Source: Geopsychrobacteraceae bacterium (GTDB lineage: Bacteria > Desulfobacterota > Desulfuromonadia > Desulfuromonadales > Geopsychrobacteraceae). From it: DNA of 64,000 nt. The notes under the pieces are model-generated. The model ran no database searches. It was not told where the DNA came from and was given only the letters and a program-made list of their open reading frames with translations. Of this stretch, positions 2,568 to 8,349 are shown one piece after another (within the stretch, counting starts at the first letter, position 1; the number at the start of each line of letters is the position of its first letter). A program made the position numbers and the translations under genes. The stretch covers positions 288,001-352,000 of the forward strand of contig OY759353.1 of NCBI GenBank assembly GCA_963662315.1, in the 5' to 3' direction.

Positions 2568-3010
2568 AACCTTTTGGCAAGCTAATTATTCTGAGTTTTC
2601 TCCTGCTTTGCACCTCCTGCGCGTACTTCACAGGTGGGGTTGATGATGTCGAGAGAGATGAATTTTTCAATAAACTTCCCATGATCAACGAAGAAATATT
2701 GGGGAACTTAAAATACGATGACCCGACTCTCAATTTGCAATCACTTGGGATAAATAGTTATGCCGAGCTTTTTTCGCAGCTTGATATGACGGATGATTAT
2801 CAGCGAGTTATAACTTATATCGATAAAAGTGCTGCTGAGAAAAAACTCCTTATTTTGAAAGACACTTTTGTCGTTTGTCTTCGTTCGGAGAAAAAACAGT
2901 ATCTGCTTTGTGACGATGCCGAGAGCACAGGGGCTGATAAGGTCTTGGTCGATCGAGAGTTGCCACTGTTGCAAGATGCTTTTGACAGTTTTTCCAAGTC
3001 CTTTGAGTAA
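2564..3010 (+). CDS. Predicted lipoprotein, translationally coupled to the PLC-like gene
   Basis: ATGA overlap with upstream stop; MKPFGKLIILSFLLLCTSC signal peptide with lipobox-like Cys. Confidence 0.7.
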   Translation: MKPFGKLIILSFLLLCTSCAYFTGGVDDVERDEFFNKLPMINEEILGNLKYDDPTLNLQSLGINSYAELFSQLDMTDDYQRVITYIDKSAAEKKLLILKDTFVVCLRSEKKQYLLCDDAESTGADKVLVDRELPLLQDAFDSFSKSFE

Positions 3011-3137
3011 ATATATATGCTGAGCTAGTTGACTTTGGAATCAATTGATACCGTACTTGTTTTGTGGCTTGGCCATATCCAGAAGCAAAATCGAATATGA
3101 AACGACCAAGTCATAAAGAATTGTCAGGCAAGCTTCA

Positions 3138-3180
3138 GGCGGTGATGGATCTGATCCAGGCGTTAAAAACTGGGAAGTGT
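3138..3180 (+). repeat. 43-bp direct repeat, copy 2; its end is the left half of the IS110 target site
   Basis: 41/43 identity to 1477-1519; ends in the GT core at 3179-3180, adjacent to the IS. Confidence 0.95.
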
Positions 3181-3289
3181 TTGAATGCATAAGTAACGAA
3201 AGAGGAAGCCTCCAGATGGCGGACAGTTCATAATATGAACAGGCGGGGTCGAATTCATCGCCCCGAGTCAGACCCAAAAGGAGGCTTCC

Positions 3290-4318
3290 ATGGAAAGTAT
3301 TCACTACATTGGCCTGGACGTCCACAAGAAAACCATCGCCTATTGCATCAAGAACATGAGCGGCAAAATGATTGATCAAGGGATCGTTGGAACTGAGCGC
3401 AGGGCTCTTCGGACGTGGCTATCGGCCTTGCCTGGCCCCTGGATGGGGGCTATGGAAGCGACACTGTTCACTGGCTGGATTTACGATTTTCTCAAACCAC
3501 ACGCGATTGAGCTGAAGGTTGCTCATCCGGAAATGCTCAAGGCGATTACTGCGGCAAAGAAGAAAAATGACCGGGCAGATGCTGAAAAGCTGGCGGATCT
3601 TCTACGAGTCAATCTTCTGCCCGAATGCACCATGATGTCCGAAGAGCTCCGGGAATTACGGCGTATTCTTCGTTATCGGAATATGGTGGTCCGCACGGCA
3701 GTGCAAATGAAAAATAAAATGGCCGGATTAATGATGGAAGTCGGCGCGACCTACGACAAAAAACGGTTGTATGGGAGCAAATACTTCAATCAACTGATGG
3801 AGCGGGTAGGCGATGTGCCCGATTCGGTCAAAGAGCTGTTACAACTGAGCCGCAGTAATCTAGAGCTGTTTACCGCCATCCAGAAGAAATTGGTTCGGAC
3901 TCTCCGGGAAAATGAACTGATTCGGCAGAGAGTTGAGCTTTTGATGAGCATTGCCGGGGTTGGAGAAATTATGGCTTTGACCTGGGTGTTGGAGATCGGT
4001 GATCCAACCCGCTTTCCCTCCAGTCGGGAAGCCATCAGCTATTGCGGACTCTGCAGTGCACAACGGGAATCGGCCGGGAAAGATCAACGAGGGCCACTCT
4101 CCAAAAAACGCAACAAGCACCTGCAGACCATGCTCATTGAAGCCGCTAAGCTAGCCCCACGATGGAATATTCAACTGGCGGAATTGCATGAAAAAGAGTT
4201 GACCAAAGGCAATCGCAACCGAGCCACTTTAGCTGTTGCACGCAAGCTGGTTGAATATCTGTTGGCCGTTGATCGACGTGGTACAGCTTTTGAGGAGAGA
4301 CAATCTCAGGTCGCCTGA
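3290..4318 (+). CDS. IS110-family recombinase/transposase
   Basis: YIGLDVHKK, MEAT and KKNDRADA (DEDD RuvC-like domain); C-terminal IAGVG...YCGLCSAQRESAGK...LSKKRNKHLQTMLIEAA with the catalytic Ser region. Confidence 0.95.
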   Translation: MESIHYIGLDVHKKTIAYCIKNMSGKMIDQGIVGTERRALRTWLSALPGPWMGAMEATLFTGWIYDFLKPHAIELKVAHPEMLKAITAAKKKNDRADAEKLADLLRVNLLPECTMMSEELRELRRILRYRNMVVRTAVQMKNKMAGLMMEVGATYDKKRLYGSKYFNQLMERVGDVPDSVKELLQLSRSNLELFTAIQKKLVRTLRENELIRQRVELLMSIAGVGEIMALTWVLEIGDPTRFPSSREAISYCGLCSAQRESAGKDQRGPLSKKRNKHLQTMLIEAAKLAPRWNIQLAELHEKELTKGNRNRATLAVARKLVEYLLAVDRRGTAFEERQSQVA

Positions 4319-4354
4319 GTTGGAGAAAAACAGATACTCTTTACATCAAACGAT

Positions 4355-4512
4355 CTTCCCGCCGGGCCTTGCGGACTAGGGACTACGTGAGCTTCGCTGC
4401 ACGACATTGGGAGTGTTTCAAGGCTGGCGGGTTGGCCCAAACTCAATCTTCTGTGAAGGGATGATATCCCGGAGACAGCACATGGATGTCTGGTCGCTGA
4501 TTTAGCGGACCA
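4355..4512 (+). ncRNA. Predicted bridge/seek RNA of the IS110 element
   Basis: Two stem-closed internal loops carry segments matching the target flanks (4375-4383, 4409-4416) and the donor junction (4438-4442, 4481-4489). Boundaries approximate. Confidence 0.85.
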
Positions 4513-4649
4513 AAAGAATAGATTAAAAAGATCGAAGGATGCAAAGGACAAGGAAAAACAGAGTCGCCACCGGGAGTAGGCCCGCGAGGTAAAGGGAAAC
4601 CTCCGCTTTCCCCTTGACTTTACTTATCATGGATGTCCCTAGTTTTCCC

Positions 4650-4826
4650 AAATATGGTGATGACCAGGTCGAACGTAATGATCGTCATTTTACCAACCTA
4701 AATGAAAAGCTCTTAGCAGATGTTATAACCGCAACTGGGCTGCAGATCGATACGACCTGGCAGAGCGAAGACCTGCGCCCGGATCGGGTAGGGGAGATGT
4801 GGTTGACTGCGATTTTGGTGAAATAA
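4650..4826 (+). pseudogene. Diverged duplicate of the 3' end of the methyltransferase gene (1195-1374)
   Basis: KYGDDQVERNDRHFTNLNEKLLADVITATGLQIDTTWQSEDLRPDRVGEMWLTAILVK vs KYGDGESHQDNRRFTNLNEKLLADVITATGLQIEKTWQSEDLRPERVGEMWLNAILVK. Confidence 0.9.
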
Positions 4827-4895
4827 TCTTACAGCAAATGCTATAAAAGCCCTTTTGATTGCCTGCTAGATTTAAGGGAAGAGTCTGTTAGTAAA

Positions 4896-6455
4896 ATGAG
4901 AATACCTATTATTGATTTGTTTGCAGGGCCGGGAGGATTAGGTGAGGGATTCAGCCAAGTTGGTTGGCGTGAGGGAAATCCGTTTTTTAGGATTGGGCTT
5001 TCTGTTGAAAAAGAAGTTTTTGCACACAGGACTTTAAGGTTGCGGAGCTTTATCCGTCAATTTCCTTATAACGAAATTCCGGAAGAATATTTTCAATTTC
5101 TGAGAGAAGGTAAACAGCCCGAAGAATTGTTTTTAATAGATAAATATAAGGAGCAGGCCGATTCTGCAGAAAATGAAGCTTGGCACGAGACTTTACGAGA
5201 TGATGCTGATTTTAATAAAAAACTGGACGAGCGTATTAGTCTTGCTCTTGATGGAAATAAGAATTGGGTATTGATTGGAGGCCCTCCTTGCCAAGCATAC
5301 TCACTGGCTGGACGGTCACGCAATAAGGGAAAGAAAGATTATATTCCTGAAAAAGATCATCGTCATTTTCTCTATCAGGAATATTTACGAATTATTGGTG
5401 AGCACAAGCCGGCAGTGTTTGTCATGGAAAATGTTAAAGGGATTCTTACCTCTAAGGTAGGCGGGAGCCCTATTTTTAAACAGATCCTTAATGATCTAAG
5501 AAGTCCAATGAACGGTAATGGCTGTAAGTATAGAATATTTTCATTGGTTGCTCCTGCCGAAGAAGTCAATGAAAACGGTGATCCTCTTTTTGATGATCGT
5601 GACTTTATTATCAGGGCTGAAGAGTATGGAATTCCGCAGGCGAGGCATAGAGTTATTTTACTTGGCGTAAGAGAAGATATTGTTGAAAAAGGGATTATTC
5701 CAGAAATTTTACAAAAAAGAAAACAGGTAAGTCTTTATAAAATTCTTACTCTTCCTCCCTTAAGAAGTGGTATTTCCAGGGGGAACTTTACCGGGGAAGA
5801 ATGGTTAAGGGCAGTAAAAAGTTTTCGAATTAAAGAACTGAGAAACGAGATCGTAAAGATCTCTGACCACAGAACAATGGATCGGCTTTGGGACGCTTTG
5901 AAGGAACTCAGCATTCCTGCAAGTGATATGGGGGGGAACTTCGTGACGAAATCGCCGACTCGGATTGCAGACATATTTTTGGAAGGTTGGTATGAAGATT
6001 CTAGAATTGGCGGTGTTTATAATCATTTAGCACGGACGCACATGGTCTCCGATCTTCATAGATATATATATGCAGCCAGTTTTGCCAAATCCAGAGGGAT
6101 ATCTCCACGGATGGCTGAATTTCCGGAGGATCTTAAGCCGGATCACAAAAATAGGGACACTGGTGATTTTAATGACCGCTTCAGGGTTCAGGTGACAGGG
6201 AAGCCTGCAACCACAGTAACCTGTCATATTTCAAAAGACGGTCATTATTTTATTCACCCCGATCCATCTCAATGCAGGAGTTTGACTGTCAGGGAGGCTG
6301 CTCGTATTCAGACTTTCCCGGATAACTATTTTTTCTGTGGAAACAAGACAGAACAATACATACAGGTTGGAAATGCTGTTCCGCCACTTCTGGCCAATAA
6401 AATTGCGCTGATTGTTAAAAAAGTGCTTGTTGAGGCGTTTGGTAACAATGGCTGA
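4896..6455 (+). CDS. dcm: DNA (cytosine-5) methyltransferase
   Basis: IDLFAGPGG, GGPPCQ, MENVKG, PQARHRV, RSLTVREAARIQTFPD, QVGNAVPP. Confidence 0.95.
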   Translation: MRIPIIDLFAGPGGLGEGFSQVGWREGNPFFRIGLSVEKEVFAHRTLRLRSFIRQFPYNEIPEEYFQFLREGKQPEELFLIDKYKEQADSAENEAWHETLRDDADFNKKLDERISLALDGNKNWVLIGGPPCQAYSLAGRSRNKGKKDYIPEKDHRHFLYQEYLRIIGEHKPAVFVMENVKGILTSKVGGSPIFKQILNDLRSPMNGNGCKYRIFSLVAPAEEVNENGDPLFDDRDFIIRAEEYGIPQARHRVILLGVREDIVEKGIIPEILQKRKQVSLYKILTLPPLRSGISRGNFTGEEWLRAVKSFRIKELRNEIVKISDHRTMDRLWDALKELSIPASDMGGNFVTKSPTRIADIFLEGWYEDSRIGGVYNHLARTHMVSDLHRYIYAASFAKSRGISPRMAEFPEDLKPDHKNRDTGDFNDRFRVQVTGKPATTVTCHISKDGHYFIHPDPSQCRSLTVREAARIQTFPDNYFFCGNKTEQYIQVGNAVPPLLANKIALIVKKVLVEAFGNNG

Positions 6456-6858
6456 CAGGATAACCAAAGAACGACGCAGCTGGAATATGTCCAGAATTCG
6501 TTCCAAGGATACCACTCCTGAAATGCGTGTGAGATCTTTTCTTCATCGTAAAGGTTACCGCTTCAGACTTCATGATAAAAAACTCCCAGGCAGTCCCGAT
6601 ATTGTTCTCAAAAAATATCGGACTGCCATTTTTGTTCATGGGTGCTACTGGCATAGACATACAGGTTGTAAAAACGCTTACTCTCCCAAGAGTCGTGTTG
6701 AATTCTGGGAGGAAAAATTCAGGCAGAATGTTGAAAGAGATCAAACGAAAGAAAGGCTGCTTTATGATGCGGGATGGAATGTTCTGACTGTATGGGAGTG
6801 TGAAACGAAATCACCTGAGCAGATTGAGCATGCTTTACGTGTATTTCTTAGAAAATGA
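6448..6858 (+). CDS. vsr: Very short patch repair endonuclease
   Basis: MADRITKERRSWNMSRIRSKDTTPE, LPGSPDIV, FVHGCYWHRH, VWECE. Confidence 0.95.
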   Translation: MADRITKERRSWNMSRIRSKDTTPEMRVRSFLHRKGYRFRLHDKKLPGSPDIVLKKYRTAIFVHGCYWHRHTGCKNAYSPKSRVEFWEEKFRQNVERDQTKERLLYDAGWNVLTVWECETKSPEQIEHALRVFLRK

Positions 6859-8349
6859 ATGGAGCTTTTAATGCGGGAAGTGCCACTACCACCACGAGCA
6901 GCTGCATTATCCGAGTCGATGAGGGACTTGGGATACTCTCTTGATGCTGCCGTTGCTGATCTGATAGATAACAGCATCACTGCGGGAGCATCTCGGGTTG
7001 ATATCTATTCTGATGTTCTCAGTTCAGGTGCTTGCCTGGCAATTGTTGATGATGGATCAGGCATGAGTGATGAGGAACTACAGGTAGCCATGCGCCATGG
7101 TTCCAGAAGTCCGCGTGAAAAAAGGTCGAAAGATGACCTCGGACGGTTTGGTCTTGGATTGAAGACCGCTTCTTTTTCGCAATGCAGCAAGCTAACTGTG
7201 GTCAGTTGTAAGAATGGCAAGAGGTCCGCTGCTTTATGGGACCTAGCTCTGGTTACTGAACGCGATGACTGGATTATCTGTGTGCTGGATGATGGTGAAA
7301 TTTTAAACCTTCCATATATAGACAAACTTGTAGGCGATGGGACACTAGTACTCTGGCAGGATCTGGATCGATTGTGTGAAGGCGATAATGAGGTTGTTAA
7401 CGAGAAGCTGGTAAATGAAAAAGTCAGGGAAGTAGCGAAACATCTTTCACTTGTATTTCACCGGTACCTATCTGGTGAAATCAAAGGAAAAAAACTTAAG
7501 ATATTTATAAATTATCACATGCTGGAGGCTTTTGATCCGTTCTGTATTTCTAATAAAGCAACGGACTCTCTTCGACAGGAAGTCATCCGAATTGATGGAG
7601 AGAAAGTTGTCATCCAACCATTCATACTGCCGCATCACAGCAAATTATCTGAGAAAGAAAAGGACTTCTATAACAGCAGAAGTGATTTTCTTAATAATCA
7701 GGGCGTCTATGTGTACAGGAATGGCAGGTTGATGGCTTGGGGTGACTGGTTCCGTCTGATTCCCAAAGGTGAGGCAACCAAGCTTGCTAGGGTAAAGATA
7801 GATTTTCCAAATACTATGGATGAGCATTGGACAATTGATATCAAAAAATCCAGAGCATACCCTCCTCATCAGGTAAGAGAACAGATTCGTAAGATAATTG
7901 GCAATATCGCAGAGGGCAGCACACGTGTAATCAAAGGGAAGGGGAAAAGGCTGTACGACAGAAATCCGAAGCCGATCTGGGTTAGAACTGCAGGGCAGGG
8001 AGTAATCGAATATTCTCTTGATCGTGCACATCCTGTGATCAGTTCCGTACAGGAGTCACTTGAGGATTATGAACGCAGGAAAGTAGAAGAGGTCCTTTCT
8101 ATTGTCGAAGATTCGCTTCCTATTGAGTCTATTTATGCTGACTACACAGTCAGCCCTCGGGATTTTGAAAAAACAACCGATGTTGAAATAGATGAGATTA
8201 TTAGAAGGCTGGAAGATGTCTGGAGTATTCTGTCTGTCACTCAGGGCATTTCAGAAAAATCTTTCAGGGACGTTGTCAGTTCGGTAAAGCCGTTTTCTGA
8301 TTATCCGGAAATTATTAATGAGTTTGTTGGGGGGAAATATAATGCTTAA
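6859..8349 (+). CDS. GHKL/MORC-type (MutL-like) ATPase of a restriction-like operon
   Basis: GYSLDAAVADLIDNSITA, DDGSGM, DLGRFGLGLKTASFSQ, QGVYVYRNGRL, WTIDIKKS. Confidence 0.9.
   Translation: MELLMREVPLPPRAAALSESMRDLGYSLDAAVADLIDNSITAGASRVDIYSDVLSSGACLAIVDDGSGMSDEELQVAMRHGSRSPREKRSKDDLGRFGLGLKTASFSQCSKLTVVSCKNGKRSAALWDLALVTERDDWIICVLDDGEILNLPYIDKLVGDGTLVLWQDLDRLCEGDNEVVNEKLVNEKVREVAKHLSLVFHRYLSGEIKGKKLKIFINYHMLEAFDPFCISNKATDSLRQEVIRIDGEKVVIQPFILPHHSKLSEKEKDFYNSRSDFLNNQGVYVYRNGRLMAWGDWFRLIPKGEATKLARVKIDFPNTMDEHWTIDIKKSRAYPPHQVREQIRKIIGNIAEGSTRVIKGKGKRLYDRNPKPIWVRTAGQGVIEYSLDRAHPVISSVQESLEDYERRKVEEVLSIVEDSLPIESIYADYTVSPRDFEKTTDVEIDEIIRRLEDVWSILSVTQGISEKSFRDVVSSVKPFSDYPEIINEFVGGKYNA

Follow-up and report, generated by a model that had tools for sequence, protein, structure and literature searches.

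The question raised by this locus is what occupies the 318 base pairs (bp) of seemingly empty DNA behind an IS110-family transposase gene in the window, i.e. the whole stretch of 64,000 nucleotides (nt) analysed here, which corresponds to positions 288,001 to 352,000 of contig OY759353.1 from a Geopsychrobacteraceae bacterium (assembly GCA_963662315.1). Judged from its copies and their flanks, the segment 3181-4636 of the window (+ strand; 1456 bp, including one copy of a GT core at the right end) reads as an intact IS110-family insertion sequence with the IS1111 layout: its left end is short (109 bp, 3181-3289), inverted repeats lie subterminally, and its non-coding right end is long (318 bp, 4319-4636). 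Guide-RNA recombinase systems of the IS110/IS1111 type were described in 2024 (PMC11187229, PMC11208160, PMC11208158; the published work cited in this text is represented by excerpts). A first-pass annotation of the window had placed such an RNA, known as a bridge RNA or seekRNA, at 4355-4512 and had considered all four of its guide segments readable. The comparative analysis presented here makes it very likely that a structured RNA of some 200 nt (about 4339-4546) is encoded in the right end, on the same strand as the transposase; this RNA would be the bridge RNA/seekRNA of the element.

Predicted target guides and conserved fold of the right-end RNA

The element's ends and its target were defined from the copies in the host genome (a single contig of 4.7 Mb), which contains four of them with 100% identity. 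Comparison of their flanks gave a left boundary at which GT is followed by TTGAATGC, also written as TTGAATGCATAAG, and a right boundary at which CATGGATGT, also written as the longer end ...CTTATCATGGATGT, is followed by CCC. All four left flanks terminate in (a/g)ggg(a/c)agtGT, and CCCTAGTTTT opens the right flank in three of the four copies, which lie in sites of one consensus. The flanks can thus be read as a target close to AAATAGGGGAAGT-GT-CCCTAGTTTT, a short imperfect palindrome. In the copy studied here, the left target half with its core GT (3179-3180) lies at 3171-3180, the right end with its core GT (4635-4636) at 4628-4636, as placed by string match and flank comparison, and the right target half at 4637-4646. 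The GT core, already proposed in the first-pass annotation, agrees with all four copies and about 60 homologues.

To obtain material for comparison, a protein scan was performed with one genome per species, which returned 172 relatives, mostly from Desulfuromonadales, Desulfobulbales, Syntrophales and related metagenome bins; 80 loci (59-94% identity) were kept. The ends of these homologues are conserved (left TTGAATG.ATAAG, right CTTATCATGGATGT) and their flanks are widely different. Throughout this identity range, the downstream RNA is present in every homologue with sufficient downstream sequence. The window and the 80 loci yielded alignment A1, comprising 65 distinct RNA sequences and spanning 4349-4523. 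Left out were loci in which the anchor motif failed (L027, L039, L046, L048 and L069), duplicates (L008, L009, L012, L054, L081 and L082), and loci whose downstream sequence was too short or showed no recognisable 3' motif (L041, L043, L049, L058 and L073); seven of the omitted loci formed a held-out set. Because an inverted repeat found in the window (4339-4357/4528-4546) and the tails of the homologues pointed to a long-range closing stem, the alignment was widened to A2, which contains 64 sequences and extends over 4337-4552.

Every string and coordinate of the first-pass annotation was reproduced by script on the window, and its two target guides lie exactly where an unbiased covariation scan puts them. 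The 5' strand of the first loop, ACTAGGGAC (4375-4383), the predicted guide for the top strand of the core and right target half, is the exact reverse complement of 4635-4643. The 3' strand, GGGAGTGT (4409-4416), the predicted guide for the bottom strand across the left target half and core, matches 3173-3180 at 7/8 positions and a sister repeat at 1512-1519 at 8/8. The top-strand (right) guide stands 5' of the bottom-strand (left) guide, an order that had been read correctly and that is the one of IS1111-type seekRNAs. When 4319-4627 was shuffled 5000 times with dinucleotides preserved, the right-flank 9-mer recurred in 6 shuffles, the right-end 9-mer in 7, and the left-flank 8-mer with at most one mismatch in 598, so that the last match is marginal alone; the three matches never recurred jointly (0/5000).

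The same strands follow the flanking host DNA across homologues. A usable left flank is available in 54 of the 65 rows, and 5.09 of the six bases 5' of the core match the 3' strand in these rows, compared with 2.90 after shuffling (0/20000). Identity reaches 72-89% at positions 4-8 and drops to background level at position 9, suggesting that the 3' guide comprises 8 nt, exactly 4409-4416. For the right flank, the 41 rows whose right end matches a strict pattern were used (the other 24 were dropped for end detection, not for outcome), and the 5' strand agrees with the reverse complement of core and flank at 5.29 of seven positions, compared with 4.05 after shuffling (0/20000). Both results hold when each distinct guide is represented by one row (n = 40 and 19, respectively).

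Since such shuffles retain relatedness, two further checks were run, namely a scan of all columns and an examination of the held-out loci. When every variable RNA column was compared with each flank position, left-flank positions -2 to -6 selected columns 4413, 4412, 4411, 4410 and 4409, in the same sense and with 73-89% identity, and right-flank positions +3, +4 and +6 selected columns 4379, 4378 and 4376 as complements; position +5 picked the adjacent column; the 5' strand varies in length, and its alignment is poorer. The seven held-out loci are found by a covariance model built on the first domain, with E values of 1e-11 to 1e-22. In the most distant of them, L041 and L043 (63% protein identity), GAAACTGT, their 3' strand, is identical to the left flank at 8/8 positions, and the 5' strands agree with the right flanks at 10/12 positions by hand count. 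This natural variation of guides together with targets suggests that the RNA may be reprogrammable.

Unoccupied near-targets with 1-3 mismatches each are located in the genome at about 4204872, 4209433, 4270082 and 4236289, and also in the window, where the sister repeat (1504-1529) is a diverged target-like site with a left half that matches the guide at 8/8 positions and a right half plus core that matches, by eye, at 6/9. In other genomes, the left flanks of L020, L021, L027, L042 and L077 hold intact target copies, direct or inverted, 30-45 nt from the occupied site, and in L077 two arms near the target form a long hairpin. In these genomes, the targets appear to belong to clusters of extragenic palindromic repeats.

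The conserved fold is wider than the span of 4355-4512 first assigned to it. It extends over about 4339-4546 and is closed by a long-range stem, as indicated by the inverted repeat, by pair counts in A2 and by an alignment-free duplex test. The 5' strands of this stem occupy 4339-4357 (P0a, 4339-4347; P0b, 4351-4357) and its 3' strands 4528-4546 (P0b, 4528-4534; P0a, 4538-4546). Enclosed are P1, the outer stem of the target loop formed by CCCGCCGGGCCTTG (4358-4371) and CAAGGCTGGCGGG (4419-4431); P2, the inner hairpin of that loop (4386-4403); P3, a hairpin between the two putative donor strands (4451-4478, with helices 4451-4454/4475-4478 and 4458-4461/4467-4470); and the hairpin P4 (4492-4511). 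In A2, the 13 pairs of P1, which has one bulged G, are formed in 98.4% of cells, and nine of them have changed on both sides. Compensatory changes are found in all seven pairs of P2, one of which reads CG 29 / UA 29. The first helix of P3 is 94.5% paired (one pair CG 29 / UA 28) and the second 76.9%; the six pairs of P4 are formed in 89-95% of cells, three with both-side changes, and the seven pairs of P0b in 91.3%, six with both-side changes. P0a was poorly aligned by MAFFT (61% paired). In the alignment-free test, the 5' and 3' strands of P0a from the same element form duplexes with a mean of -11.5 kcal/mol, versus -7.4 for cross-pairings between elements (0/10000 permutations).

Scored as a whole on the 64 sequences of A2, the 50-pair structure composed of P0a, P0b, P1, P2, P3 and P4 has 87.4% of cells paired, versus 35-48% when the partners are slid by 1-3 columns. 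Both-side (compensatory) changes occur in 41 of the 50 pairs, and none of 500 shuffles reaches any of the five measures. RNAalifold applied to A1 gave P1, P2 and P3 independently, and 21 of its 34 pairs show compensatory changes. G.U cells are more frequent than A.C cells (186 vs 51, P0a excluded), suggesting that the + strand is the folding strand. Two additional helices proposed by RNAalifold were rejected: GATC (4352-4355)/GGTC (4492-4495), which has no compensatory changes and competes with the covarying P4 and P0b, and ACTC/GA.GT, which has none either. Folding of the region and covariation across homologues had both been suggested in the first-pass annotation; the covariation supports the fold, and the energy of the single sequence stays at shuffle level, although single-sequence folding of 4319-4636 and of 4345-4520 recovers the P1 stem and the inner hairpin P2. 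The structure put forward here is one that rests on covariation, not on energy.

These data bear on the simplest alternative, that the matches are a coincidence or a by-product of repeated ends and that no functional RNA exists. The chance-level fold energy of the single sequence would fit this explanation, as would the match of one proposed donor segment, CAAAC, which is likewise at chance level. It is already contradicted by the joint absence of the three matches from the shuffles, by the compensatory changes in most pairs and by the guide-flank covariation over dozens of different targets, and its probability is considered negligible.

Putative donor strands and the weighing of alternatives

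The bridge RNA reading further predicts strands that recognise the donor, i.e. the ends of the element. The segment CATGGATGT at 4481-4489 equals the right end plus core (4628-4636), as the first-pass annotation had stated, and is a candidate 3' donor strand. Its part 4482-4489 is conserved and C4481 is lineage-specific, most relatives having A at this position. The RNA 8-mer 4482-4489 (ATGGATGT) equals the right end plus core in 54 of the 65 elements, three of them through a G-to-A change shared by RNA and end, and L041 has another shared G-to-A change together with one unshared change. A recurrent variant, A for T three bases from the right end (ATGGAAGT or ATGAAAGT) with T kept in the RNA, was seen in L008, L009, L055, L075, L041 and L043, which represent several lineages.

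An internal copy of the right-end 9-mer could also be the mark of a passenger or regulator, either a hitch-hiking module like Ssr9/MITEPpu9 of ISPpu9 or the 3' untranslated region or terminator of the transposase mRNA, and locus L038 does stop right after its internal copy. Ssr9, however, was reported in three strains only (PMC12288879), whereas the RNA described here is found in all homologues with enough downstream sequence. In addition, solo copies of the RNA and internal left-end boxes are absent from the genome, and the loop strands track the flanking host DNA, for which a passenger or terminator would have no reason. This explanation is therefore regarded as very improbable.

As to L038 itself (1380-1420), the target-like flank CCCCGGAATT adjoins the internal ATGGATGT of its RNA gene, and the copy lacks the final ~147 nt, with which P4, the closing stem's 3' half, the -35 box and the genuine right end are lost. 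Such a copy may have arisen either by a deletion between the two 8-bp repeats or by use of the internal donor-like site as an end.

The 5' donor guide is where the first-pass annotation did not hold: of its four guides, both target guides and the right-end match of the putative 3' donor strand stand, and CAAAC (4438-4442), the reverse complement of 3179-3183, is probably a chance match. This motif occurs twice in the real region and also twice in 326 of 5000 shuffles, and it shows no covariation. It varies independently of the left end, as the register reads CAAAC, CTAAC, CGAAC, CACAC or TAAAC in relatives with an unchanged left end. In the whole RNA, column 4444 alone shows complementary covariation with the left end. 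Left-end position 3 (G 53, A 4) and RNA column 4444 (C 53, T 4) are complementary in 57/57 cases (0/2000 permutations), and the A/T combination occurs four times, in L034, in L055 and in both sisters L078/L079, hence in at least three lineages. This signal defines a register in which the candidate 5' donor strand ACTCAATC (4441-4448) stands against GTTTGAAT, with pairing at 8/8 positions in L079 and 7/8 in L078, and with natural mismatches at RNA positions 4447 and 4442. T-to-A variants at left-end position 2 are unmirrored in the RNA in either register, and left-end position 8, the most variable one, has no complementary partner column in the RNA. The 5' donor guide is thus the least certain part of the proposed RNA. 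Imperfect pairing would not disqualify it, since the right donor guide of IS621 is also discontiguous and partly non-canonical, nine RNA bases pairing with seven donor bases and positions 53 and 161 being non-canonical (PMC11208160, PMC11208158).

Handshake guides like those of IS621 were looked for beside these strands and rejected, as UA after 4383 and UUC after 4448 lack complementarity to the partner DNA. The TT that follows 4416 is identical to the first two bases of the left end, and neither side varies. The donor strands are located in a junction among P1/P0, P3 and P4, not in a simple internal loop.

With the donor pairing being imperfect, it has to be considered that the RNA guides the choice of target only. 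A short seekRNA would then correspond to the first domain (~4349-4431), the protein would read the ends through the subterminal repeats, and ATGGATGT and ACTCAATC would be kept for other purposes, e.g. RNA-protein contacts. The predominant co-purifying RNAs reported by Siddiquee et al. are 82-96 nt long, with target matches as the only ones described in the excerpts cited (PMC11187229), and the first domain here measures 83 nt; moreover, IS1111 elements have long subterminal repeats, and both the incomplete 5' donor pairing and the right-end variants unmirrored in the RNA, detailed below, fit this explanation. On the other side stand the identity of the RNA 8-mer with the right end in most elements, including the shared G-to-A changes and the further one of L041, the complete complementarity of column 4444 with left-end position 3, and the covarying closing stems P0a and P0b, which enclose both modules as one fold. 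Donor-complementary loops have also been reported in the IS1111-group bridge RNAs inspected by Durrant et al. (PMC11208160). Guidance of the target only is accordingly judged to be unlikely.

Several observations weigh against the bridge RNA/seekRNA reading. For the donor strands, the 4441-4448 register pairs at 6/8 positions in most members, with the second core base and left-end position 5 mismatched, and at only 4/8 in the held-out L041; a right-end variant is unmirrored in the RNA in 11 of the 65 elements (nine single changes and two indel-like). For the target guides, the right flank of one copy of the element, L004, does not fit the guide, and the permutation and shuffle controls keep phylogenetic relatedness in. 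The energy of the single-sequence fold is no better than that of shuffles (z = 0.55 and -0.18 for the two segments folded), and a strict sigma-70 scan of 3100-4700 found no promoter for the RNA. Rfam 15 gave no match at E <= 1 within 3000-4900, and none at gathering score in six related loci, which means that no curated model fits, a curated match not being a defining feature of bridge RNAs. Finally, the first-domain covariance model has no hit on IS5075 (L087), a result that is uninformative at 24% protein identity, so that the RNA is only putatively homologous to the experimentally studied seekRNAs.

Taking both target and donor recognition as functions of the RNA, the following course can be proposed from the IS621 and IS1111 literature. 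The element would excise as a circle, the junction of which (right end-GT-left end) would serve as the donor and would also assemble a promoter from TTGACT, 17 nt and TTGAAT. The 342-amino-acid DEDD/serine recombinase would bind the RNA, the first loop would pair with both strands of the target GGGAGT-GT-CCCTAGT, and the second module (4482-4489 and 4441-4448) would pair with the donor junction, after which strand exchange at the GT core would insert the element.

The element and its surroundings

The first-pass claim of an IS110-family element whose long right end holds a guide RNA is supported, and the element looks intact, with four identical copies, a full open reading frame (ORF) and five catalytic residues aligned to those of IS621/ISCro4. 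The transposase/recombinase gene (3290-4318, + strand, 342 amino acids) was identified by Pfam and NCBIfam profiles and by these residues. Its product contains the Pfam domains DEDD_Tnp_IS110 (2.2e-18) and Transposase_20 (8.9e-21) and scores 186.5 bits against NCBIfam NF033542 ('IS110 family RNA-guided transposase'; cut-off 140). The closest solved relatives are the bridge recombinases ISCro4 (E 9e-7) and IS621 (E 4e-5), and D10, E56, D94, D97 and S261 align with the catalytic positions of ISCro4/IS621 in phmmer, those of IS621 being D11, E60, D102, D105 and S241 (PMC11208158). The similarity to IS621 amounts to 26 bits and covers the C-terminal part only; the N-terminal alignment to IS621 is weak (2.6 bits), and the mapping of the catalytic residues leans on ISCro4. 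The C-terminal serine motif GLCSAQRESAG departs from the IS1111-type GL-P----S(t)G in that another residue stands for P, and SAG for SG. The only named IS110-family element compared, IS5075, has a transposase with a weak identity of 24.3% over 98% of the query (E 1e-7). We take IS5075 and IS4321 to be members of the IS1111 family, from the title of a reference. By eye, AAAACGGAA in the right end of IS5075 is complementary to its right flank TTCCGTTTT.

The subterminal inverted repeat consists of a left arm, ATAAGTAA (3189-3196), and a right arm, TTACTTAT (4620-4627), which are 8 nt long, 100% complementary and set 8-9 nt inward of the element ends. In the leader of the transposase gene (3204-3289), a hairpin with arms GGAAGCCTCC (3204-3213) and GGAGGCTTCC (3280-3289), 10 nt and 100% complementary, covers the ribosome-binding site and would bury it. 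Inspection of the leaders by eye showed that homologues alter both arms jointly, e.g. GGAAACCTCC/GGAGGTTTCC and GGGAGTCTCC/GGAGACTCCC. The hairpin probably limits translation of transcripts that read in from outside.

The proposed circle junction would bring together TTGACT (4614-4619, 17 nt from the element end), a putative -35 box, the 17 nt of 4620-4636 as spacer, and the hexamer TTGAAT that opens the left end (3181-3186), a putative -10 box. TTGACA (30) or TTGACT (23) occupies the -35 position in 53 of 54 homologues. In 70 left ends, the hexamer reads TTGAAT (59), TAGAAT (5), TTAAAT (4) or TTGGAT (2); it is TATAAT in L041/L043, and the variants drift towards TATAAT. Junction promoters have been described for relatives (PMC12288879). 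Near the right end, a consensus scan found a terminator-like hairpin at 4594-4612; the number of such hits is no higher than in shuffles, and the sequence is conserved in homologues.

In contigs of four public runs, the depth inside the element is about fourfold that of the flanks, and the contigs diverge at 3172-3180 and 4636-4648, just outside the element; no circle junction or empty site was seen in them. A look-up of sequencing runs listed none of RNA. Two of the genomic copies, L002 and L004, form a tandem duplication (4201034-4204542 of the genome) with a unit of 2041 bp, consisting of the element and ~585 bp. The right end of the first copy of this pair abuts TCCAAACAG, not the usual CCCTAGTTTT; this is the one right target half of the four that deviates.

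A ~55-nt insertion with cores ..CCTCCGACGAGC.. and ..GCCCATTCTCGG.. and a GC-rich outer stem is present in L046, L048, L080, L083, L084 and L086. Its position differs between elements, as it can lie within P3, stand upstream of the RNA or occupy the right end. In appearance it resembles a very small mobile or structured module, and it has no Rfam match at gathering score.

The flanks of the copy in the window are paralogous to sequence further left, in swapped order: 3138-3180 corresponds to 1478-1519 (95%) and 4640-4720 to 1182-1265 (79%). The right flank copies the methyltransferase gene 799-1374 without its 5' part, and the left flank repeats part of the small ORF 1352-1567, suggesting that the target site lies at a junction of reshuffled gene fragments. 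To the right of the element, the region 4896-8349 encodes a C-5 cytosine DNA methylase (1.1e-44), a Vsr mismatch endonuclease (1.4e-31) and a HATPase_c_3 protein (5.3e-32), and by this gene content the neighbourhood is of a restriction/defence type. The product of a minus-strand ORF at 4306-4551 (81 amino acids) has no Pfam family.

Significance and comparison with known systems

Bridge RNA/seekRNA recombinases insert, invert and delete DNA at guide-chosen sites without double-strand breaks, and the solved structures considered here are of the IS110-group enzymes IS621 (PMC11208158) and ISCro4. The RNA gene described here is, as far as sequence comparison can tell, a well-supported addition to the known IS1111 type and not categorically new; the element carrying it belongs to an undescribed branch from sediment bacteria. 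It adds a cleanly delimited IS1111-type example together with a base-by-base map of RNA versus DNA positions, and its probable guide RNA accounts for the 318-bp 'empty' stretch behind the transposase as well as for the preference of the copies for one type of short palindromic site. With about 40 different target guides of 8 + 9 nt, the family forms a natural series, and about 60 natural relatives with co-changing guides and targets constitute a test panel for the rules of IS1111 targeting and end reading. Should the enzyme function outside its host, 342 amino acids and an RNA of ~200 nt would make up a compact recombinase, and from the weak protein similarity we would guess that it is orthogonal to IS621 and ISCro4. 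More tentatively, and with doubt prevailing, the Desulfobacterota clade might represent a distinct architectural type of IS1111 bridge RNA, characterised by a single closed ~200-nt fold, donor recognition in a multi-helix junction, and a deliberately imperfect right-donor guide with mismatches kept in most members.

Among the nearest known systems are the IS1111 seekRNAs of ISEc11, ISPa11, ISKpn4 and ISPst6 (PMC11187229), with which the element shares the non-coding region downstream of the transposase and the subterminal repeats, which by definition measure 7-17 bp in IS1111 elements (PMC11208160). Its transposase of 342 amino acids falls in the range of 330-350 reported for this group (PMC11187229). 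By the IS1111 rule, the RNA comes from non-coding DNA downstream of the transposase and has its top-strand match placed 5' of the bottom-strand one (PMC11187229), and bridge RNAs of the IS1111 group, located in the right end, are predicted in 93% of such elements (PMC11208160). In both cases two segments match both target strands, overlap at the crossover and have the top-strand match first, and the 83 nt of the first domain, known here from sequence, compare with 82-96 nt for the predominant RNAs. In the RNA studied here, a second module with donor-like strands and a closing stem is conserved, and the protein, with its ~24% identity to IS5075 and its serine motif GLCSAQRESAG, stands apart.

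Compared with IS621 (Durrant et al. 2024, PMC11208160; Hiraizumi et al. 2024, PMC11208158), the recombinase is of the same DEDD + serine type, and the RNA would follow the same bispecific logic, with two short RNA strands, overlapping at a 2-nt core, that read the two strands of each DNA partner. The right donor guide of IS621 has natural mismatches, as does the candidate one here. Reported targets of the IS110 family include repetitive extragenic palindromes, and the target here is also a short imperfect palindrome. The differences are that the RNA lies in the right end instead of the left, that the guide order is reversed, that the core is GT and not CT, and that the donor strands occupy a multi-helix junction rather than a simple internal loop; in the window, no handshake-guide complementarity is evident beside the top-strand guides.

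ISPpu9 with Ssr9/MITEPpu9 (Pares-Guillen et al. 2025, PMC12288879) resembles the element in having a small-RNA gene downstream of an IS110-family transposase, end-like boxes repeated within the element and a palindromic target. The downstream RNA of ISPpu9 is, however, described as dispensable and mobile alone, with the bridge RNA located upstream, whereas here no solo copies are found and it is the downstream RNA that carries the target-matching strands.

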